Positions 1-11,024 of a DNA stretch of 41,577 nucleotides are shown piece after piece. Within the stretch, counting starts at the first letter, position 1; each line of letters starts with the position of its first letter. The notes under the pieces are model-generated. The model did no database searches, was not told where the DNA came from, and saw only the letters and a program-made list of their open reading frames with translations. Source of the stretch: Bacillota bacterium (GTDB lineage: Bacteria > Bacillota > Clostridia > Acetivibrionales > JAFADI01); assembly GCA_023424965.1 (NCBI GenBank), contig JAFADI010000267.1:1-41577 (forward strand), read 5' to 3'. The position numbers and the translations under genes were made by a program.

Positions 1-102
1 CCTTATGTGAAAGTGGCCTCTCCCCAAAGAATTGCAGATGAAATTGTACGAAGAGTGAAAAAATCAATCGAAATGTATAATGCAAGGGGGCACACCCGCT
101 GA
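1..102 (+). CDS. 3' end of an upstream gene (C-terminal 33 codons, ...IADEIVRRVKKSIEMYNARGHTR*); product unknown
   Basis: Open frame running from window edge to TGA at 100-102; no family recognised. Confidence 0.3.
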   Translation, partial: PYVKVASPQRIADEIVRRVKKSIEMYNARGHTR

Positions 103-165
103 GCCGGAAGCATTGCTCATAAGGAGGAAATTGCCCCCTTTCGGTTTGGAAAGAAAGGGTAGTGA

Positions 166-498
166 TTTAAAATAAAAATATTATTTTTATGCAGTAGAAA
201 TAAGTGGAGAAGCCTCACTGCCGAAAAGATTTTTAATGGGGTCAACGGCCATGAAGTAAGGTCGGCCGGAACAGAAAACAATGCTAGAATTAAAGTGACA
301 GGTGGGCATATTGGCTGGGCGGACATAATTTTTGTAATGGAGAAAAAACACTTAAGAAGAATCCAAGAGAAATATGGAAATATTCTGAGGGGTAAAAAGG
401 CAATCATTCTGGATATACCGGATGACTATTCTTTTATGGACGAGGAATTGATCGAAATATTGAAGTCCCGTGTTTCCGAATACATGGACATGCTTTAG
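166..498 (+). pseudogene. 5'-truncated low-molecular-weight protein tyrosine phosphatase (YwlE/arsenate-reductase fold) remnant
   Basis: Frame open only from 166 (stops at 160-165). The translation NGHEVRSAG...ADIIFVMEKKHLRRIQEKYG...ILDIPDDY matches the C-terminal two-thirds of LMW-PTPs (VRSAG, DPxxG-like region). The N-terminal CX5R P-loop is absent in all frames upstream. No ATG before the GTG at 295. Confidence 0.55.
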
Positions 499-508
499 AT
501 ATCAAAAA

Positions 509-541
509 AGTTTGCAGCATTTCCAAAGTTGCAAACTTTTT
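509..541 (+). terminator. Rho-independent terminator (AGTTTGCA-loop-TGCAAACT followed by TTTT)
   Basis: 8-bp perfect stem followed by a T-run directly after the PTP remnant. Confidence 0.6.
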
Positions 542-682
542 GTCTGTAAATTGGAAATACCTTCCCGTATACTAAAATTGTTCCTGTTCCCAATGCAAAG
601 ATTTCTGGATGGTCTTGCGGTGCCTTTTACTTCACTTGTAACAGGTATACCGGGAAAGCCGGAACTCAAAAACCTTAGTGCC

Positions 683-762
683 GGAGGTTCGATTCCTCCA
701 TTACTGTAAAGTAATTAGCTCAGCGGTAGAGCATAAGGCAAGGAAAAGGGGTTCAAATCCCC
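683..762 (+). other. tRNA-like arm fragments that do not assemble into a cloverleaf: T-arm-like GGAGGTTCGATTCCTCC, hairpin ATTACTgtaaAGTAAT, D-arm-like GCTCAGCGGTAGAGC, second T-arm-like GGGGTTCAAATCCCC
   Basis: Canonical TPsiC (TTCGATT/TTCAAAT) and D-arm sequences read directly. Only 15 nt lie between the D-arm and the second T-arm, so no anticodon arm. No complementary acceptor strands and no CCA. Confidence 0.3.
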
Positions 763-1087
763 ATCAGATGAGGGATCTGAAGGCTATGGTTTAGCACTCG
801 ATTGAAAATCGAAGGAATGTACTGGAATCTTTGGAGAGAATCCTCGGGCTTTTGCAAATATTTTGCGGAGGCACCGGAACTTAAGCCCTGAAGTGTGCGG
901 ATACCGGGTATGGCAAGCTTGCCCTCGTGCGTGAAGCCATGTTGAATGAGCCGGGCGGAGCCTGGAATTTCAAATGGCCCACGGACAACGGCCTGCAAGC
1001 GATAGCCTCAAGCAGCACTCCGCCGATGTTGCGGGAGGATTCTTGAAAAGGATTCAAAAGCTATTTTTGTTGAAAGGATGGATGAAA

Positions 1088-2212
1088 ATGAAGGTAAGGA
1101 TCAAAAATGACGAAAGAGGTCTGTTATTCAGGGACGGCAACTATGTAAAATGCTTAAAACCCGGGAAGCACTCACTGAATCCCTTTGTTAAATATAGTGT
1201 TATTGTAGCGGATGTTAACCGGGCCTTTGACATAGCAGGGAAAAATATCAACCTGTTTCTCGGAGATGAGGAGCTTTTAAAAGAGCTTACGGTACTGGAT
1301 GTCCAGGACTATGAAATTGCCATACATTTTGAAGACGGCAAGCTTGCGGAAGTTCTGAAATCCGGTAAGTACGCATTCTGGAACGTCCTCAAAAAGCATA
1401 GCTTTAAAGTCGTTGACATCAGAGATCCCCAGGTGAAACCCGATATTGACGCCTCCACCTACACCAACCCCAGGCTGGCAGGATTTGTGGGATACTATGA
1501 AGTGGCAAACCATGAAAAAGGCATACTCTACTACAACAATGTAATTCAGAAAACTCTGGAGCCCGGCAGGTATTTCTTCTGGAAGAGTCCTGTGCATGTG
1601 GCGGTAAAGAACGTAGATTTGCGGCAGCAGCAACTGGATATGACCGGACAGGAAATCATGACGGAGGACAAAATTACCTTGAGGCTGAATTTCGTATGCC
1701 ATTACAGGATTACAGAGCCTTTGAAGGTTGTGGAGGTAAAATCCTTCGAAGAACAGCTCTACATCGTGCTGCAACTGATCCTGAGGGAATATGTGGGGGC
1801 TTTGAAGCTGGATGATCTCCTTCTGAAAAAGCAGGAAATCGGGAGCTACGCCCTGGAAAAATTAAAGGAGAAGAGCGGCAGCTACGGTGTGGAATTCCTG
1901 TTTGCAGGTGTGAAAGACATCATATTGCCCGGGGACATAAAGGATATATTGAACACTGTGCTGATAGCCGAGAAGAAGGCACAGGCCAATGTTATTACCA
2001 GAAGGGAAGAAATCGCCTCCACAAGGAGCCTGCTGAACACTGCAAAGCTTATGGAGGAAAACCAAACGCTTTACAGGCTGAAAGAGCTTGAGTTCCTGGA
2101 AAAGATTTGTGAGAAAATCGGCAATGTTTCGCTGACCGGCGGGGGCAGCCTGCTTGAACAGCTAAATACGCTGCTGTCCAATAAGGCCGGTGACAGAAAA
2201 TGCGGAGTATGA
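1088..2212 (+). CDS. SPFH/Band-7 (stomatin/prohibitin-like) domain protein without TM anchor, with a duplicated N-terminal beta segment
   Basis: SPFH core signature ...MTGQEIMTEDKITLRLNFVCHYRITEP...; two similar N-terminal segments (KVRIKNDERGLLFRDGNYVKCLKPGKH / HEKGILYYNNVIQKTLEPGRYFFW). RBS AAAGGA 9 nt before ATG 1088 (ATG 1082 is an alternative). Confidence 0.8.
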   Translation: MKVRIKNDERGLLFRDGNYVKCLKPGKHSLNPFVKYSVIVADVNRAFDIAGKNINLFLGDEELLKELTVLDVQDYEIAIHFEDGKLAEVLKSGKYAFWNVLKKHSFKVVDIRDPQVKPDIDASTYTNPRLAGFVGYYEVANHEKGILYYNNVIQKTLEPGRYFFWKSPVHVAVKNVDLRQQQLDMTGQEIMTEDKITLRLNFVCHYRITEPLKVVEVKSFEEQLYIVLQLILREYVGALKLDDLLLKKQEIGSYALEKLKEKSGSYGVEFLFAGVKDIILPGDIKDILNTVLIAEKKAQANVITRREEIASTRSLLNTAKLMEENQTLYRLKELEFLEKICEKIGNVSLTGGGSLLEQLNTLLSNKAGDRKCGV

Positions 2213-2305: not shown

Positions 2306-3496
2306 ATGATAGAAATCAAAGGAAAGTACAATACGGCAAAGGTTTTTACCGACAATGTGGAGGACGTGGCGGTGGCCCAGATCCTGGAGCTTTGCAACCA
2401 GGAGTTCGTTAAGGACAGCAGCATAAGGATTATGCCGGATACCCATGCGGGTGCCGGCTGCACCATTGGGACCACCATGACCATTTCCGACAAGGTGGTG
2501 CCCAACCTTGTGGGTGTTGACATCGGCTGCGGCATGGAAACCATAAAGCTTAAAAACAAAGAACTGGACTTAGGCAAGCTGGATAGGGTGATTCATGAAC
2601 ATATACCGTCCGGTTTTGATACGAGAAAAAAGCAGCATTCCTATGTAGAAAAAATTGATTTTGACAAGCTGGCGTGCAAAAAGAATGTGGGCATAGACCG
2701 GGCCAGGCTGAGCGTCGGTACATTAGGCGGAGGAAATCACTTCATCGAGGTAAACAAAGACGGGGCTGGAGAGTTGTATCTTGTGGTGCATTCAGGGAGC
2801 AGGCACCTCGGCAAACAAGTTGCCGAGTTCTACCAGGCCCTTGGATACAAGGAGCTGGTAAAAAACAGTGAATATCTTTCGGAGCTCGTCGGAAGACTAA
2901 AGGCGGAAGGCCGTGAAAAGGAGATTCAAGAGGAAATCCGGAATGCAAAGCCCTTGAAGATCAACAAGCAGCTTGCCTATGTGCAGGGAAAAAGCTATGA
3001 GAATTACTTGAATGACATGAAAATCGTACAAAAATTTGCGGTGCTTAACCGCAAGGCGATGGTGGATGAGATTGTAAAGCGGATGGAAATTGATATTGCG
3101 GAGCAGTTCGCCACAATCCACAATTATATTGACCTGGACCATATGATTCTCAGAAAGGGTGCAATTTCCGCACGCAGTGGGGAGAGAGTCCTGATTCCCA
3201 TCAACATGCGGGACGGAAGCCTGATTTGTACCAGAAAGGGCAATAAGGATTGGAATTATTCTGCACCCCATGGGGCAGGCAGGTTGATGAGCAGGAGCAA
3301 GGCAAAGGAAGTTATAAGCCTGGAGGAGTTCAAAAAATCCATGGAAGGTATCTATTCAACCACCGTTAACCGGTCCACTCTGGACGAATGCGCTCTGGCC
3401 TACAAACCGATGGATGAAATCGTAAGCAACATTCAGGACACGGTAGAAATCGTTGACAGAATTAAACCGGTATATAATTTTAAGGCAGCCGAGTGA
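2306..3496 (+). CDS. rtcB: RtcB-family RNA 3'-phosphate ligase (short ~400-aa form)
   Basis: Motifs MPDTHAGAGCTIG, GGGNHFIE and APHGAGR resemble the RtcB metal/GTP-binding motifs. Confidence 0.85.
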   Translation: MIEIKGKYNTAKVFTDNVEDVAVAQILELCNQEFVKDSSIRIMPDTHAGAGCTIGTTMTISDKVVPNLVGVDIGCGMETIKLKNKELDLGKLDRVIHEHIPSGFDTRKKQHSYVEKIDFDKLACKKNVGIDRARLSVGTLGGGNHFIEVNKDGAGELYLVVHSGSRHLGKQVAEFYQALGYKELVKNSEYLSELVGRLKAEGREKEIQEEIRNAKPLKINKQLAYVQGKSYENYLNDMKIVQKFAVLNRKAMVDEIVKRMEIDIAEQFATIHNYIDLDHMILRKGAISARSGERVLIPINMRDGSLICTRKGNKDWNYSAPHGAGRLMSRSKAKEVISLEEFKKSMEGIYSTTVNRSTLDECALAYKPMDEIVSNIQDTVEIVDRIKPVYNFKAAE

Positions 3497-3765: not shown

Positions 3766-3788
3766 AGCCATAGGAATATGGCTTTTTT
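3766..3788 (+). terminator. Terminator-like hairpin (GCCATA-ggaa-TATGGC + TTTTTTT) inside the topB leader, 33 nt before the topB start; possible attenuator
   Basis: 6-bp stem, GGAA tetraloop and a 7-T run read directly. Confidence 0.4.
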
Positions 3789-3820: not shown

Positions 3821-5989
3821 ATGGGAAAAATTTTGGTTTTGACGGAAAAACCCTCGGTGGCCAGGGATATTGCAAAGGTGCTGGGCTGCACCCAGAACGG
3901 CAACGGCTGCATCATGGGTTCAAAATACATCATCACCTGGGCGCTGGGACATCTGGTGACGCTGGCCGACCCTGAGGCGTACGGCAGCAAATATAAATCA
4001 TGGAATCTTGAAGACCTGCCCATGCTTCCCAGGAAAATGGAGCTGGTGGTCATCCGGGAAACGGCAAAGCAGTTCGGAGCCGTGCGGGGGCTCATGAGCC
4101 GGGACGACATCGACGAACTGGTCATCGCCACCGATGCGGGGCGAGAAGGGGAACTGGTGGCGCGCTGGATCATAGAAAAGGCGGGCTTCCGCAAGCCCAT
4201 AAAGCGCCTGTGGATTTCCTCCCAGACGGATAAGGCCATCAAGGAAGGCTTTGCAAACCTTAAGCCCGGAAGGGAATACGACAATCTTTACATGTCGGCC
4301 CAGAGCCGGGCGGAGGCGGATTGGCTGGTGGGCCTCAATGTCACAAGGGCTCTCACCTGCAAATACAACGCGCAGCTTTCGGCGGGGAGGGTCCAGACCC
4401 CCACGCTGGCAATGATTGTCGAACGGGAAAATGAGATACGAAAATTCGTGCCCAGGGATTTTTGGACCATCAGCGGCAAAGTGAACGGCTTTGACATGCA
4501 GTGGAAGGATCCGGCCAATGGGAACACAAGGATCTTCGATAAAGCAAAGGCGGAGGAAATTGTGGCAAAAGTAGCCAACCAGGAGGGCAGGATCGCAGAA
4601 GTCGGCAAAGATGCGAAGAAAGAACTGCCGCCCCTTGCCTATGACCTGACGGAGCTCCAGCGGGATGCCAACAGGCGGTACGGCTATTCCGCCAAAAAGA
4701 CCCTGTCCCTCATGCAGAAGCTGTATGAAGCACACAAGCTGGTGACCTATCCCAGGACCGATTCCAGGTATATCTCGGAGGATATCGTTCCCACCCTGCC
4801 GGAACGGTTGAAGAGCATTGCAGTGGGACCCTATACCGCCATGGCCCGGGAGGTTTTGAAGAACAGGCTCAATGTGACCAAGCGGTTTGTGGACGGCAGC
4901 AAGGTTTCTGACCATCATGCCATCATACCCACCGAGCAATTTGTGAACCTTGGCTCCTTGAGCCAGGAGGAGCGCAATATCTACGACCTGATTGTAAAGC
5001 GGTTTATCGCGGTTTTGAATCCCCCCTTCGAATATGAGCAAACTACCGTAAGGGTGGAGGTCAGGGGAGAACAGTTTTACGCAAAAGGAAAGATCGTGAA
5101 AGCCCTGGGTTGGAAGTCGGTGTACGGCAGTTCCGACAAGCTGGAGGAGGACGAGGAGGAAGAGGATCAGGACCAGTCCCTTCCGGAGGTTACGAAAGGA
5201 CAGACGGTGAAATTGCTTTCCGCCAGGCCTGTCAACGGCAAGACGAAGCCACCGGCCAGGTACAACGAAGCCACGCTGCTTTCGGCCATGGAGCATCCGG
5301 GAAAGTTTGTAGAGGACAAAGCCTTGAGAGAGGCGCTGGAAAGCACCAGCGGCCTTGGCACGCCGGCCACCAGGGCGGATATCATCGAAAAGCTCTTTGA
5401 TACCTTCTATGTGGAAAGACGGGGAAAAGAAATCTTTCCTACCTCAAAGGGAATTCAATTGATCGGGCTGGTGCCTTCCGACCTGAAGTCACCGGAGCTG
5501 ACGGCAAAATGGGAACAAAACCTGCAGTTGATCAGCAAAGGGAAGGCCAATGCAAACAAGTTTGTGGAAGAGATGAAGAATTACGCCTCGAAGCTGGTTT
5601 CCAATGTCATTGCAAGCACGGAGGGCTACCGGCATGACAACATGACCAGGGAAAAGTGCCCCGAGTGCGGAAAATACCTTCTGGACGTCAACGGAAAGAA
5701 GGGGAAAATGCTCGTGTGCCCCGACAGGGACTGCGGCTACAGGAAGGGAATTTCCCAGGTATCCAATGCCAGGTGCCCGGAGTGCCACAAAAAGATGGAG
5801 ATACGGGGAGAAGGGGAAAACAAGACTTTTTATTGCACCTGCGGGTACAGGGAAAAGTTGGAGGCCTTCAAGAAGAGAAAGGGAGAACATGTCGACAAGA
5901 GGGAAGTCAGCAAGTTCCTGAAGCAGCAGGATGAGGGTGAAAGCATCAACTCCGCGCTGGCAGAAGCCCTGGCCAAGTGGAAGAAATAG
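3821..5989 (+). CDS. topB: Type IA DNA topoisomerase III with three C-terminal C4 zinc ribbons
   Basis: N-terminus MGKILVLTEKPSVARDIAKVLG (the EKPS Toprim motif typical of topo III rather than topo I), 722 aa; C-terminal CPECG...CPDRDCG, CPECH...CTCG. Confidence 0.85.
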   Translation: MGKILVLTEKPSVARDIAKVLGCTQNGNGCIMGSKYIITWALGHLVTLADPEAYGSKYKSWNLEDLPMLPRKMELVVIRETAKQFGAVRGLMSRDDIDELVIATDAGREGELVARWIIEKAGFRKPIKRLWISSQTDKAIKEGFANLKPGREYDNLYMSAQSRAEADWLVGLNVTRALTCKYNAQLSAGRVQTPTLAMIVERENEIRKFVPRDFWTISGKVNGFDMQWKDPANGNTRIFDKAKAEEIVAKVANQEGRIAEVGKDAKKELPPLAYDLTELQRDANRRYGYSAKKTLSLMQKLYEAHKLVTYPRTDSRYISEDIVPTLPERLKSIAVGPYTAMAREVLKNRLNVTKRFVDGSKVSDHHAIIPTEQFVNLGSLSQEERNIYDLIVKRFIAVLNPPFEYEQTTVRVEVRGEQFYAKGKIVKALGWKSVYGSSDKLEEDEEEEDQDQSLPEVTKGQTVKLLSARPVNGKTKPPARYNEATLLSAMEHPGKFVEDKALREALESTSGLGTPATRADIIEKLFDTFYVERRGKEIFPTSKGIQLIGLVPSDLKSPELTAKWEQNLQLISKGKANANKFVEEMKNYASKLVSNVIASTEGYRHDNMTREKCPECGKYLLDVNGKKGKMLVCPDRDCGYRKGISQVSNARCPECHKKMEIRGEGENKTFYCTCGYREKLEAFKKRKGEHVDKREVSKFLKQQDEGESINSALAEALAKWKK

Positions 5990-7014: not shown

Positions 7015-7842
7015 TTAAAATTTTCCGCCCCCTCCGCCATGGCTTCTTCCGCTGCTGCCATGATGAGTGCTGCTTCCACCGGAGCCGGAGTCATTTTGAA
7101 TCCTGACGCGGGTGGTTGTTTCCCTGACATAGTCATCGCTGGAAGCTGTCAGTTTAAAGGAACCTTCTTCTTCGTAGGTCCGGTTGCTGATTGTAATTTT
7201 GCCTTTGCTTGACAGGGAAGCGAGGATGGTGGCAATAAGCGCTACAACTGTTGCCGTTATATAGACGGCGGGAAGTTGCACCTGCCTTGCGACCCTTTCC
7301 AGATACGTGCCGGGAGCGGCGGATTCCTGCCCTCCGGGCACAGTTTCCGGTGCTTCGGTGTCTATTCTGTGCTGTCCTTCCGGTATCCCCTTATCGGCAT
7401 AAAATCTCACTTTGCTGATAAATTCCTTACAGCTGTTGTAATAATCGGCTTTTGACAGAAAACCGCCAACGGCACTCACCATCTCCGATATTCTGGCATC
7501 GGTGAAAATATCAATGGCTTTGCCCGTTGTGGAGATCCACAATTCCCTTTCCTTCATGTTGATCAGCAGCAGCAGGCCGGACTTGTCGCTTCCCGCACCA
7601 AAACCGTTGTAGTCGTAATAGTCGTCGGCAAAGTCTCTGGAAGACTTGCCTTCCGTATCCTCCGTGGTGACAATGACCACATCCAGGCCATAATCCTTGA
7701 CAACTCCGTCAATCAGACTCTGAACTTCTTTCAGTTCCTCTTCCTTCAGAAGGCCCAGGGAATCCTTGACTTTCTCAGTTTCAGCCGCCAGCACCTGCAT
7801 TTGTCCTACAAGCAGAACAAACATCAAAGCCAGCAGCAGCAC
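7015..7842 (-). CDS. TPM-domain (YgcG-like) protein: signal peptide, TPM domain, TM helix, Gly/Ser-rich tail
   Basis: Signal-like LLLALMFVLLVGQMQVLAAE; TPM-like core; C-terminal ...GSGGSSTHHGSSGRSHGGGGGKF. GTG start at 7842 with AGGAAG RBS, 11 nt after the upstream gene's stop. Confidence 0.75.
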   Translation of the reverse strand: MLLLALMFVLLVGQMQVLAAETEKVKDSLGLLKEEELKEVQSLIDGVVKDYGLDVVIVTTEDTEGKSSRDFADDYYDYNGFGAGSDKSGLLLLINMKERELWISTTGKAIDIFTDARISEMVSAVGGFLSKADYYNSCKEFISKVRFYADKGIPEGQHRIDTEAPETVPGGQESAAPGTYLERVARQVQLPAVYITATVVALIATILASLSSKGKITISNRTYEEEGSFKLTASSDDYVRETTTRVRIQNDSGSGGSSTHHGSSGRSHGGGGGKF

Positions 7843-7852
7843 ACTTATCTTC

Positions 7853-8884
7853 CTAGACAAACAGAGCACCCCCAAACACGCCCAATATCCATACTGCAGC
7901 AAATACCAGACCGGCAAAGGCCAGCTGCTTTAAGAAGCTGGTGGGCGTATCTCCCACCACCTTGCCGGTTTGTCCGTTGATAATGAATATATGCGATTTT
8001 TCCTTGTACTTGTTGACCAATAAATAAATGGGCAGCAGTGAATAGCTCTCTTCGGTATCCCACAGGTCTGTATGCTTTGACATGACAGTATAGGAGGAAT
8101 AGCCCGTCACCGTTCCCCTCAGCCTGTCCTCCGCATATTTTGCGACTCTTTCCCTCATCACCGATGCCGCTTCATTACCTTCCACATCATATTTTTCCGC
8201 CATGAAGCCGGACAGGTACTGCATGGAAAAATCCGTAAGGTCATTGTAGTTATAGGGCTCAATCATGTGCATGAAGGTATCGTCCAGCTTTTTGGAGGCA
8301 TCCACGGGTACCTGCTGATAGTTTACCATGCCCCTGCGTGCGACCCTGTAATATTTTGTCTGGGTATACCTGTATTGTCCCTGTGTCCAGTGGCTGACCC
8401 TGGTGGCTTCCCCGTCGATAGCGCCGTCAACTCTACAGTCAAATAACCAGAAGGGTGCGTAGATACCTGTTATCTTTTCAATTTCTTCCCTGGTTTTGAA
8501 CTCGCCGGGAGCAAACAAGCGCCTTTTTATCCATTTTCGATAAATGTCCTCCGCCTGGAGCTTTGTCAGGCGGAAGGGAATCAGCTTTTTGGGCTTAAAC
8601 CTTCCGGAAAACCTTGTTTTGATGATGGTAGGGTTTTTGCAATACAAACAGGTGGTGGCGGAAACCGTATCGTCGGTAATCAATTCCGCCCCGCAGCTGG
8701 TGCACCGGTAGGAATCCAATTCCGGCATATCCTGTTCCGGCGGTTCCTCTTCCCGGTAAACGGCGTCAAGATCCGCTTTCGTAAATTCACTGAAGCAATA
8801 GTGGCATTTCCACTTCTGGGAAGGCGGGTCGAATTCCAGACCGGCTTTGCAGTTCAGACATTTATATTCCTTTACCGAACTCAT
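7853..8884 (-). CDS. Double zinc-ribbon protein with central domain of unknown function and C-terminal TM anchor
   Basis: CLNCKAG...CHYCFSEF and CTSCGAE...CLYCKNP zinc ribbons; C-terminal FLKQLAFAGLVFAAVWILGVFGGALFV. RBS AGGAGA 6 nt before the ATG. Confidence 0.7.
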   Translation of the reverse strand: MSSVKEYKCLNCKAGLEFDPPSQKWKCHYCFSEFTKADLDAVYREEEPPEQDMPELDSYRCTSCGAELITDDTVSATTCLYCKNPTIIKTRFSGRFKPKKLIPFRLTKLQAEDIYRKWIKRRLFAPGEFKTREEIEKITGIYAPFWLFDCRVDGAIDGEATRVSHWTQGQYRYTQTKYYRVARRGMVNYQQVPVDASKKLDDTFMHMIEPYNYNDLTDFSMQYLSGFMAEKYDVEGNEAASVMRERVAKYAEDRLRGTVTGYSSYTVMSKHTDLWDTEESYSLLPIYLLVNKYKEKSHIFIINGQTGKVVGDTPTSFLKQLAFAGLVFAAVWILGVFGGALFV

Positions 8885-8919
8885 TCACATTCTCCTTTTT
8901 CCCTTGTTCCGAAATAGAG

Positions 8920-10278
8920 TCAGCCAGGCCTCTTGCTTCCGCAGTTGGAGCAGAAAAGGCCTTCCGTCTCGTTGCCGCAGGTGCAGACCCATTTTTTCCT
9001 GTCGGGCCGCCGTTTGCCGCAGTCAGGACAAAAGGAGCCACCGGACGTCTTTCTTCCGCAGGAACATTCCCACGGGTCTCCCGAAGGTTCCGGTTCCCTC
9101 ACGGGCTTTTTGCTGCCGCAGCTTGAACAGAAGGCGGCATTTTCAGGCATTTTGTTCCCGCAGGAACAGGTCCAGCCTCCCTGCGCAGCGGGAGGGTTGG
9201 AAGGCTGCTGCTGTGGCTGCTGGCCCGGCATTGCTCCTGCAACTCCGGCGGCGTTCATCCCCATGGCCATCCCTGCAAAGCCCATCATCGCCCCGCCCGG
9301 ATTTGAGCCTGCGGCTTCGAGGCCTGACGCCAGGCCCGCGGTCATACGGGCGGCCCTTGCATTGGGGTCCAGCAGGATGGAGTCGTTGGCATATTTCTCA
9401 AGCAGCTTGTCGGTGTTTTCATCAAAGGAGATCCCGGCAATTCCCACACTGTGGATAAAAAAGCCCCTCTTTGAAAGCCACTCCTTGTCAAGGACTTCTG
9501 CCATAAACTGCCCCAGTTCCATGGTCCTCATGGGGATGTCGGAGACCAGGACATTGCTGGCGGACAGGCTGGCCAGCGCAGTGGTATAAGCCATCAGGAA
9601 TTCATTAATATATTGTTCCGCCATGTCACCGGTGCTGAGGTTGGCTTTGCCGGTTTTGCTGCAGACTTCATTGTAGAATAACAACGGATCGGCTACTTTT
9701 ATTGAATAAGTGCCGAAGGAGGTTATTTTGCAGGGTACCACCCTTCCCGGAACCAGGACCCTGTCGGTATAAGGCACGGGATTTTTTGTTCCGAAGCGTA
9801 TATTGGGAAGCTCCTGCTTGTTGATGTACACTACTTTCTGTTTAACGGGTGTCGTACCACCGAACTTGAAGCGCTCCCAGGAATCCTTCAGGGTGTTCGC
9901 CAGGCCTCCCGGCCGGTATATTCCGTTTCTTCCGGTGTTATCATACTCCTGGACATAGCTTCCCTCCGGTGACTGAAAAAAGATGGAAGGCGACCGGGAA
10001 TTGTCAACCTGGTAATAGCCCGGCTCATCGGTGGCGGAGATAATCCTGCCTCCGTCTACCAGCAGCATGAAGACATTCTCGGGAACATGGATGATTGAAC
10101 CGTTGGAAATGACATCCTCCGTTCCTCTTCTATTTGAGCTCCGGGAATCTTTTTTCCTGACACAGACTCCGTAAGACGCGATGATGGTGTTGTCAATTTG
10201 TGCAGGCTCGATGGTTTCAAGCCATTGGTCCGCAAGTGTTCCTCCGATTGCTCCAACTGCCGCTTTAAAAATACCCAT
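8920..10278 (-). CDS. SPFH/Band-7-like (Band_7_1-type) protein with Gly/Ala/Gln-rich linker and three C-terminal C4 zinc ribbons
   Basis: N-terminus MGIFKAAVGAIGGTLADQWLE... typical of the SPFH-like 'virion core protein' family; tail CSCGNK..CSSCG, CSCGRK..CPDCG, CTCGNE..CSNCG. RBS AGGAAAGGAAGAGGGG upstream. Confidence 0.8.
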   Translation of the reverse strand: MGIFKAAVGAIGGTLADQWLETIEPAQIDNTIIASYGVCVRKKDSRSSNRRGTEDVISNGSIIHVPENVFMLLVDGGRIISATDEPGYYQVDNSRSPSIFFQSPEGSYVQEYDNTGRNGIYRPGGLANTLKDSWERFKFGGTTPVKQKVVYINKQELPNIRFGTKNPVPYTDRVLVPGRVVPCKITSFGTYSIKVADPLLFYNEVCSKTGKANLSTGDMAEQYINEFLMAYTTALASLSASNVLVSDIPMRTMELGQFMAEVLDKEWLSKRGFFIHSVGIAGISFDENTDKLLEKYANDSILLDPNARAARMTAGLASGLEAAGSNPGGAMMGFAGMAMGMNAAGVAGAMPGQQPQQQPSNPPAAQGGWTCSCGNKMPENAAFCSSCGSKKPVREPEPSGDPWECSCGRKTSGGSFCPDCGKRRPDRKKWVCTCGNETEGLFCSNCGSKRPG

Positions 10279-10535
10279 TTTCCCCTCTTCCTTTCCTGAA
10301 CGGTGTAATTTCTTCCTATTCTTATGTGTCTTGCATCAATAACTACTATAGATTATTCCTGTATACTACAAATTATATATGAACATGCGGAGGTTGTAAA
10401 AATGTTTTTGCAGGCTTTTGCCCGCGCTCCTGTCAAGAGTAGGGACAGATGCGAGCTTCCAATGTTTGTATTGAACATTTTTTTATTTACCGTTACTATG
10501 GTAAGTATACAGAGACCGGCAAAGGAGAAGAAGCC

Positions 10536-11024
10536 ATGAATGCACAGGAGAAAGTTTTTGAAAGGCTGAAGGCATTGGACATCAAATACGAGGTCACAAA
10601 CCATCCGGCCGTTTTTACCATTGAAGAGATGGACAACCTGAATATAACACTTCAGGGGGATGTGTGCAAAAACCTGTTTTTGAGGGACGAGAAAGGGAAG
10701 CGGCACTTCCTCGTGGTTCTGGGAAAAGACAAAAAAGCCGATTTGAAAAGCCTCCAGAGCCAGCTGGGCTGCAGCAGATTGGGCTTTGCATCGGAAGAAA
10801 GGCTTTCCAGATACCTGCAGCTTAAAAAAGGGGAAGTGACTCCCATGGGTATCATCAACGACACCGATGCCCTGGTGGAGGTGGTGCTGGACAGGGATCT
10901 GACAGGAAAAAACAGGCTTGGAGTCCATCCCAATGACAATACCGCCACCGTATGGATTGCTTTTGAGGCGTTGAAAAAAGTCATCGAAGGAAACGGCAAC
11001 AAAATCCACTTCGTTGCAATCTGA
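10536..11024 (+). CDS. YbaK/ProX-like aminoacyl-tRNA deacylase domain protein
   Basis: ~160-aa protein with YbaK-like pattern (KNLFLRDEKGKRHFLVV..., GIINDTDA..VVLD...HPNDNTAT). RBS AAGGAGAAG 5 nt before ATG 10536. Confidence 0.7.
   Translation: MNAQEKVFERLKALDIKYEVTNHPAVFTIEEMDNLNITLQGDVCKNLFLRDEKGKRHFLVVLGKDKKADLKSLQSQLGCSRLGFASEERLSRYLQLKKGEVTPMGIINDTDALVEVVLDRDLTGKNRLGVHPNDNTATVWIAFEALKKVIEGNGNKIHFVAI

Follow-up and report, generated by a model that had tools for sequence, protein, structure and literature searches.

A large structured RNA with two circularly permuted tRNA-like modules lies upstream of the slipin and RtcB genes in a clostridial genome

Organization of the locus

The stretch of DNA analyzed here (the window, 41,577 nucleotides (nt) in length) belongs to a Bacillota bacterium of the Clostridia (contig JAFADI010000267.1 of assembly GCA_023424965.1), the source being a MEGAHIT metagenome contig. 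On that contig the genes follow one another in the order RNaseH-like, RNase T-like, two WYL/WCX-family genes, a phosphatase remnant, the RNA that is the subject of this study, slipin (an SPFH/Band 7 protein), the RNA ligase RtcB and topoisomerase III. Positions ~580-1056 encode one large (~480-nt) conserved structured RNA, which lies upstream of the slipin and RtcB genes and contains two tRNA-like modules in circularly permuted order. The RNA, its flanking signals and the two downstream genes comprise the following features:

505-541, no strand assigned: terminator-like hairpin (AAAAAGTTTGCA ... TGCAAACTTTTT) that closes the phosphatase gene and parts it from the RNA
568-573, plus strand: candidate -10 box TATACT of a putative promoter, with the predicted transcript start near 579-581
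580-666, plus strand: 5' domain, with closing helices 580-584/661-665 and 587-591/652-656 taken from the fold of eight relatives
595-603/611-618, plus strand: hairpin H1 of the 5' domain
619-620/650-651 and 622-626/642-646, plus strand: helix of the 5' domain bearing the conserved GGUAUNC internal loop
673-738, plus strand: module 1, YrlA-like and circularly permuted, opening at the anticodon loop
747-813, plus strand: module 2, widely conserved, permuted at the variable loop and keeping a closed anticodon-like arm
826-1056, plus strand: GC-rich 3' domain with a long closing helix (826-846/1034-1056, core 836-844/1036-1044)
875-877/1031-1033, 884-886/1022-1024, 890-898/1012-1020 and 906-911/1002-1007, plus strand: inner helices of the 3' domain
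899-906, plus strand: invariant GGAUACCG, in an internal loop facing UCAAG (~1008-1011)
1082-2212, plus strand: slipin (SPFH/Band 7) gene, with the ribosome-binding site AAAGGATGG at ~1072-1080
2306-3496, plus strand: RtcB RNA ligase gene (Pfam RtcB, E = 2.4e-63)

A large conserved RNA upstream of slipin

A first-pass annotation of this region had proposed a decayed locus, in which a truncated phosphatase gene and the scars of a disrupted tRNA gene precede a long GC-rich, structured stretch at 770-1080. Composition and folding bear out the last of these points: the G+C content is 54.1% at 826-1056, compared with 37.5% at 103-579 and 46.1% over the whole window, and the interval 580-1060 has a fold energy of -174.6 kcal/mol (z = -4.0) that none of 100 shuffled sequences reached. 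Four related genomes (L001, L002, L004 and L006) share 79-85% identity with the window over the interval from the phosphatase terminator to the start of slipin, the leader of L006 (Ruminiclostridium cellobioparum DSM 1351) being 85% identical, and RNAalifold on eight relatives predicted 156 base pairs, 52 of them with a compensatory change. Taken domain by domain, 89-99% of the alignment cells are paired as against 31-48% with slid partners, and two-sided changes occur in 12-26 pairs per domain; these figures come from related sequences and from structures that were partly derived from the same alignments as those used for counting. The suggestion of a long structured 5' untranslated region or an unrecognised noncoding RNA at 770-1080 thus holds in an extended form, the stretch being the 3' domain of the ~480-nt RNA, in which 26 of the 29 pairs are compensatory.

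The terminator-like hairpin at 505-541 corresponds to the conserved first helix in the RNAalifold fold of the eight relatives, and a weak minus-strand match to the Rfam Thr_leader model is this same hairpin. The conserved TATACT at 568-573 is a plausible -10 box: GTATACTAAAATTG is kept in seven of eight close relatives, and GUUC is preceded by TATACT or TATAAT in L009, L010 and L013. A consensus promoter scan chooses another pair, TTGGAA at 551-556 and TAAAAT at 573-578. Only ~25-40 nt separate the closing helix from the ribosome-binding site, and no terminator-like site was found in this gap in the window, such a site being present in only 3 of 79 loci; co-transcription of the RNA with slipin is therefore likely. 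Protein coding within 770-1080 was considered and rejected: neither a slipin extension from the ATG at 974 nor a minus-strand open reading frame at 753-998 is conserved, and the indels of the relatives within this stretch are not multiples of three, whereas the base pairs are kept.

Two circularly permuted tRNA-like modules

The T-arm strings noted in the first-pass annotation (GGAGGTTCGATTCCTCC at 683-699 and GGGGTTCAAATCCCC at 748-762) and the D-arm string (TAGCTCAGCGGTAGAGCA at 716-733) are all present, and no complete canonical tRNA accompanies them: ARAGORN found neither a tRNA nor a tmRNA in the window, no Rfam model for either reached its gathering score there, and the Rfam tRNA model gave the RNA only 19.8 bits against a cut-off of 29. 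The accompanying statement that there is no anticodon arm and that the acceptor strands do not pair is correct for the canonical order only. Read in the permuted order, the sequence forms all four stems, with covariation in each, and the T-arm and D-arm pieces are parts of two circularly permuted tRNA-like cloverleaves supported by covariation. In both modules the chain runs through the T arm, the acceptor stem closed by a small loop, the D arm and the anticodon stem, and the signature nucleotides of tRNA can be read from the sequence (U8, A14, G15 with C48, G18 G19, and a T loop of UUCGAUU or UUCAAAU).

Module 1 is closed by an anticodon-type stem formed by its flanks, CCUUA (673-677) pairing with UAAGG (734-738). 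Within it, a 5-nt variable loop (678-682) ending in C48 leads into the T arm (683-699), followed by the acceptor hairpin (700-715) closed by GUAA, by U8 and A9 (U716 and A717), and by the D arm (718-732), which carries A14, G15 and G18 G19. In alignment A7 (14 sequences) 98.9% of the cells are paired, compared with 39-46% for slid partners, and 12 of the 19 pairs, including all five of the closing stem, show compensatory change. Among Rfam models run in E-value mode over 400-1200, YrlA, a bacterial Y RNA that mimics tRNA, gives the best match, at 661-758 with 37.9 bits (E = 1.2e-6), the gathering score of that family being 69.

Module 2 consists of a T arm (747-763), a closed acceptor hairpin (764-780), a short D arm (783-795) and an anticodon-like arm (797-813) that is closed by the 7-nt loop UUGAAAA. 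Its 48-sequence alignment (A4) has 89.7% of cells paired and compensatory change in 15 of 20 pairs, a level reached by 0 of 500 shuffles. The anticodon-like loop has 7 nt in 39 of the 48 sequences, with U33 in 33 and a purine at position 37 in 36 of those 39. Fourteen types of triplet (UUU, UCC, UUC, GUC, GUU, GUA and others) occupy the loop, while the stem CUCGA/UCGAG is almost invariant. Even among close Paenibacillus the triplet (A4 columns 84-92; 802-808 in the window) varies between UUU, UUC, UCC, GUA, GUU, UCU and others, which could reflect drift or diversifying selection. A covariance model of module 2 (R1) matches 21 loci outside its training set, including Escherichia coli with 32 bits and Burkholderia with 25 bits; in the 41.6-kb window its one match is module 2 itself.

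Searches with 4227 Rfam models gave no match at the gathering score in the window or in 16 of the related loci, except for borderline tRNA hits, and no riboswitch, T-box or other large RNA was matched, with nothing relevant in E-value mode over 400-1200; the riboswitch-like element entertained in the first-pass annotation accordingly finds no counterpart among Rfam families. Rfam has no family for this RNA, and genome annotations leave it out. The upstream regions of 60 related loci contain no credible tRNA call, and the ARAGORN calls in L022 (inside the slipin gene) and L060 (over a module T arm) look spurious. The Rfam tRNA model exceeds its gathering score (29-41 bits) at L031 3620-3680, L007 3562-3618, L009 3644-3700, L011 3675-3745 and L020 3682-3745. 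The matches in L031, L007 and L009 span the D arm of one module and the T arm of the next; those in L011 and L020, which have a single module, take in the D arm and the anticodon-like arm and run into downstream sequence. Covariance models that bridge two modules in this way can yield false annotation of tRNA pseudogenes.

The 5' and 3' domains

The modules are embedded between two further covarying domains. For the 5' domain, alignment A6 (47 sequences) has 92.9% of its cells paired, with compensatory change in 12 of 15 pairs and slid controls at 33-44%. For the 3' domain, alignment A5 (47 sequences) has 88.8% of its cells paired (slid, 36-48%), with compensatory changes in 26 of 29 pairs and in 324 cells; the middle of this domain (~912-1001) is variable. 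The GGCGGAG at 954, the CTCCGCC at 1018 and the palindrome GGCAAGCTTGCC at 912, singled out earlier as examples of nested hairpins, are all present. The helix proposed between the first two is not the one the alignment supports, since covariation pairs 1012-1020 with 890-898 and 1022-1024 with 884-886 instead, and the palindrome is not conserved in the relatives.

The columns of GGAUACCG are unchanged across the 47 sequences, and GATACC is found in 67 of 80 loci, ~110-170 nt past the T arm. The near-invariant GGUAUNC of the 5' domain (~645-651) is complementary to GGAUACC of the 3' domain (899-905). A long-range pairing of the two was considered and set aside: the 5' motif has a local partner (at pair 62/95, 35 sequences have AU, 12 have GC and 0 are unpaired), and the 3' motif never varies and so offers no covariation signal. 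Both motifs may serve in a three-dimensional contact or in protein binding.

Conservation and gene context in relatives

A slipin search yielded 80 loci, mostly from Paenibacillus, Clostridia and Thermoactinomycetaceae. In 75 of them a T-loop motif occurs 250-630 nt (mostly 300-400) upstream of slipin, an nhmmer profile of the window region matches 61, and the arrangement with the RNA before slipin is the same in ~75-78. Ruminiclostridium, Petroclostridium, Paenibacillus and Thermoactinomycetaceae are among the groups that keep it, every stem showing compensatory substitutions. Among genes within 4 kb, RtcB appears at 21 loci, the nucleotidyltransferase RlaP at 16 and regulators of the HTH-WYL-WCX type at 28; only the combination of the RNA with slipin is constant.

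This distribution bears directly on the view that the locus is decayed and its tRNA arms are scars. Comparison with the orthologous loci of relatives, proposed in the first-pass annotation as a way of recognizing decay, revealed the same permuted modules with compensatory changes, that is, two intact tRNA-like domains conserved and covarying before slipin across genera. Conservation and compensatory change together lead us to reject the interpretation as an integration scar or decayed tRNA.

More distant forms were observed as well. Burkholderia multivorans (L082, 3612-3726) has a canonical-order tRNA-like element upstream of slipin, with an extra T arm ahead of it; it scores 44 bits with the Rfam tRNA model and is called tRNA-Phe(aaa) by ARAGORN, with an 'anticodon' loop of 3-4 nt, and it is probably the form described as b7a-tRNA (see below). 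In E. coli STEC639 (CP061233.1; L081, 3670-4000) a sigma-54-type promoter TGGCACGCTTCTCGCA (TGGCAC-N5-TCGCA) is followed by a T arm and an acceptor hairpin; this leader, located between a DUF3811 gene and lysC, precedes genes for slipin and an RlaP-like nucleotidyltransferase, and occurs in 1632 of 5426 complete E. coli genomes with nothing annotated under it. No phage relatives were found in IMG/VR. A plasmid link was dismissed, the only 'plasmid' hits being megabase-size replicons or chromosome-like records.

Genes around the RNA

The slipin protein (Pfam Band_7, E = 8e-29) is 100% identical to database entry P0001. Its AlphaFold model (mean pLDDT 76.5) combines beta repeats at the N-terminus with an SPFH domain and a long helix, and lacks an N-terminal membrane helix. 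Foldseek with this model returned stomatin and HflK/C rings, as well as the major vault protein over 419-481 columns, the whole length. The model thus predicts a soluble protein that is vault-like in domain order.

Two genes lie on the other side of the RNA within the window:

1-102, plus strand: 3' end of the second gene of a WYL/WCX-family regulator pair, matching WCX weakly; the first gene falls outside the window
162-498, plus strand: LMW-PTP-like (low-molecular-weight protein tyrosine phosphatase-like) gene, frameshifted, with the CX5R motif CSRNKWRS at 190-213 intact

The translation of the former, PYVKVASPQRIADEIVRRVKKSIEMYN, matches the C-terminus of a 353-aa protein of L006. In both L006 and L003 the upstream gene, of 430 aa, has WYL and WCX matches and the second a weak match to WCX; on the source contig the pair (L083, 2720-5021) encodes 429 and 341 aa, with clear WYL and WCX matches only in the first. 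The adjacent genes are reminiscent of PafB/PafC. In many Paenibacillus, single divergent HTH-WYL-WCX genes go with the RNA-slipin cassette. The WYL/WCX genes are candidates for the damage-responsive regulator of the operon. Upstream of the pair (L083, 1145-2612) are an RNaseH-like gene (PF04308) and a gene for an RNase T-type exonuclease; an RNaseH-like gene likewise lies upstream of the RNA in L007.

The phosphatase had been described as 5'-truncated, lacking its catalytic N-terminus and a start codon. The N-terminus is in fact there: the frame 166-498 carries the CX5R motif (...ILFLCSRNKWRS...), and profile positions 1-41 are taken in by the Pfam LMWPc match. As for the start, there is indeed no ATG, GTG or TTG in frame between the stop at 163-165 and the Cys codon; a GTG does exist at 162-164, put out of frame by one extra T. 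Orthologues in L002 and L006 begin GTG ATT AAG ATA AAG, whereas in the window the extra T follows the GTG (GTGATTTAAAAT vs GTGA-TTAAGAT), so that the frame of this GTG runs GTG, ATT and then TAA (168-170) after two codons. The defect is a point frameshift and not a 5' deletion; it may be a genuine mutation or stem from an error of assembly. The gene is otherwise intact, with 110 aa, of which the source assembly annotates only a 67-aa remnant. Since it neighbours the RNA in only 2 of the 80 related loci, the phosphatase is an occasional neighbour outside the conserved cassette. NCBIfam gave no name for the phosphatase or for the WYL proteins.

Downstream of RtcB a terminator-like hairpin (3766-3783) precedes the topoisomerase III gene (3821-5989, same strand), whose product has Toprim and Topoisom_bac domains and a C-terminal tail rich in zinc ribbons. 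A second, unrelated SPFH cluster occupies 7015-10278 on the minus strand and encodes a Band_7_1 protein bearing several zinc ribbons at its C-terminus (8920-10278), a 343-aa CxxC-rich protein without Pfam match (7853-8884) and a TPM-domain protein (7015-7917); R1 gives no match near this cluster. A free-standing aminoacyl-tRNA editing domain protein of the YbaK/ProX type is encoded at 10449-11021, 7 kb from the tRNA-mimic RNA, a proximity that is probably coincidental.

Relation to known systems

The abstract of the 2016 paper by Burroughs and Aravind reportedly proposes that SPFH/Band-7 modules and 'a novel tRNA-like molecule' act as scaffolding cofactors in systems for RNA repair. As summarized in a 2018 preprint on the YrlA structure (bioRxiv 10.1101/312249), RtcB is in some bacteria encoded beside a Band-7 protein and a predicted RNA, the b7a-tRNA (for a tRNA associated with band 7) of Burroughs and Aravind (NAR 2016), with an unvalidated, proposed Y RNA-like role in RNA repair. 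An SPFH gene is also found inside the rtc locus of Pseudomonas (PMC13086221), a TROVE protein with a tRNA-like partner has been discussed as a repair platform (PMC7824862), and RlaP is a repair-associated enzyme (PMC7824862 among the sources). The window RNA agrees with the b7a-tRNA, as far as the preprint's summary goes, in lying directly upstream of a Band-7/SPFH slipin gene (1082-2212) with RtcB nearby (2306-3496), and in having a tRNA-like fold with T-arm and D-arm signatures and four-stem cloverleaves in both modules. By this context and by its tRNA mimicry we infer that it belongs to the class predicted as b7a-tRNA. In that summary the b7a-tRNA strongly resembles authentic tRNA, which fits the Burkholderia element (44 bits) and not the window RNA, which is permuted, is missed by tRNA finders and has two modules within ~480 nt flanked by covarying 5' and 3' domains. 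Its form, being permuted, doubled and set in a large covarying fold, appears to go beyond the description of b7a-tRNA given there.

YrlA (RF02553) is defined by three stem-loops, of the T, acceptor-like and D types in that order (Chen et al. 2014, PMC4201824). Module 1 shares this T arm, closed acceptor-like hairpin and D arm, a stem closing at the anticodon position, the tRNA signature nucleotides and an operon with RtcB. The window RNA differs from YrlA in its partner gene, which is slipin, in being ~4 times longer and in possessing a second module.

The vault is composed of the major vault protein, vault RNA and the TROVE protein TEP1. The slipin model, with its beta repeats, SPFH 'shoulder' and long helix, aligns with the major vault protein, and the pairing of a cage-forming SPFH-type protein with a small structured RNA would be common to both. 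Sequence identity between slipin and the major vault protein is only 11-14%, oligomerization and RNA binding of slipin are predictions, and vault RNAs are not tRNA-like in the manner of the window RNA. The red alga Cyanidioschyzon merolae has circularly permuted tRNA genes that give functional tRNAs via a circular intermediate. They resemble the modules in that the 3' half of the cloverleaf comes before the 5' half and a short loop joins the acceptor strands; unlike them, the modules sit in a larger conserved fold, and nothing suggests maturation to a decoding tRNA.

Proposed role and alternative explanations

We consider it probable that the RNA is a b7a-tRNA-class partner of slipin in RtcB-linked RNA repair. 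It would be transcribed from before the slipin and rtcB genes, probably jointly with them, and perhaps processed; it would then bind a soluble, vault-like slipin oligomer as Y RNA binds Ro60, and its tRNA-shaped part would join the particle to tRNA-directed enzymes or to damaged tRNAs, so that RtcB, or RlaP in other genomes, could repair tRNAs cut in the anticodon loop. Several observations weigh against this proposal. Expression of the RNA, its ends and its interaction with slipin are inferred, and the class assignment depends on a second-hand description of b7a-tRNA, in the preprint's summary. Because the structures were counted on their own alignments and on related sequences, the shuffle and slide controls overstate significance somewhat. 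The YrlA match falls well short of its gathering score (37.9 vs 69 bits), the Ro-binding motif GNCGAAN0-1G occurs nowhere in 560-1060, and no Ro60/TROVE gene is present from 5 kb upstream (L083) to 17.7 kb downstream. RtcB, RlaP or WYL is encoded within 4 kb in only 34 of the 80 loci, the other neighbours being unrelated; the one constant is the RNA-slipin pair, so that a link to repair may be absent in some genomes.

Alternatively, the RNA could act solely in cis, as a sensor leader that controls expression of slipin and rtcB on its own mRNA, for example through a shift in fold, stability or ribosome access upon binding of damaged or uncharged tRNA or of a protein, or upon cleavage of its own loop. 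A leader of this kind would stand where the RNA always does, immediately before slipin and on its strand, with the closing helix ~25-40 nt from the ribosome-binding site and no terminator between, and Bacillota, which are without the RtcR-type sensor of Proteobacteria, would presumably need another damage sensor (drawing on PMC7790460). Yet the RNA has no conserved alternative terminator/antiterminator or pairing that sequesters the ribosome-binding site, matches no riboswitch or T-box model, and stands in many loci with WYL regulators already present, or in E. coli behind a sigma-54-type promoter; moreover, Y RNAs encoded in operons are co-transcribed with their neighbours and nevertheless act in trans (PMC4201824). 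On balance we regard a purely cis-acting leader as unlikely. A different function, compatible with the proposed partnership with slipin, would be that of a decoy or bait, whose tRNA-shaped modules soak up or report ribotoxins that cut anticodons. The canonical shape of the anticodon loop of module 2, and its 14 types of triplet beside a nearly invariant stem, speak for it, as do several triplets that match tRNAs targeted by known anticodon nucleases. On the other hand, the variation may be neutral drift at unpaired positions, 9 of the 48 module 2 loops are not of 7 nt and module 1 is without any loop. A role as competitive inhibitor has been suggested for YrlA, although Salmonella YrlA was not cut by the nuclease tested (PMC7790460). 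The decoy function seems to us rather doubtful.

The remaining two explanations start from the tRNA itself. If the modules were permuted precursors of a working tRNA, as in the permuted tRNA genes of Cyanidioschyzon that serve as the model for this route, RtcB would circularise the ends and RNase P/Z would open the acceptor loop. The T arm and the 3' strand of the acceptor do precede its 5' strand, the D arm and the anticodon arm, and an RNA ligase gene is adjacent; but the acceptor stems have only 5-6 pairs and tiny loops, the D stem is missing in many relatives, neither the loop lengths nor the triplets are regular, there is no sign of a discriminator base or CCA context, and the large conserved flanking domains would be unnecessary, all of which makes a tRNA precursor very improbable. 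An origin of the modules from a tRNA gene that integration or excision had disrupted, beside a dead phosphatase gene, accords with the lack of a canonical tRNA call and with the frameshifted phosphatase. Against this, the arrangement is conserved across genera and every stem has compensatory substitutions, the RNA has neither an integrase nor a repeat at its flanks in the window, and the phosphatase has kept its active-site motif; the decay scenario is effectively excluded.

Returning to the RNA as a partner of slipin in repair, a more far-reaching version may be imagined, for which we claim little more than a speculative standing and which we consider unlikely as a whole. The RNA and slipin would form a bacterial counterpart of Ro/Y RNA or of the vault, in which the permuted tRNA domain would be a bait cut by invading anticodon nucleases; the cut would recruit RtcB or RlaP to the particle or turn on the downstream repair genes, so that the RNA would be a damage sentinel and not a passive scaffold.

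Whatever the mechanism, the RNA as a whole would constitute a class of large, structured bacterial RNAs that is new and missing from Rfam. For RtcB, an RNA ligase of near-universal occurrence, the substrates and helpers in bacteria are still poorly understood, and the present analysis gives the predicted Band-7/RtcB partner RNA a concrete, testable architecture of two permuted tRNA mimics together with covarying 5' and 3' domains. A related leader occurs in ~30% of complete E. coli genomes, which makes genetic work, pull-downs of RNA with protein and challenge with nucleases straightforward.

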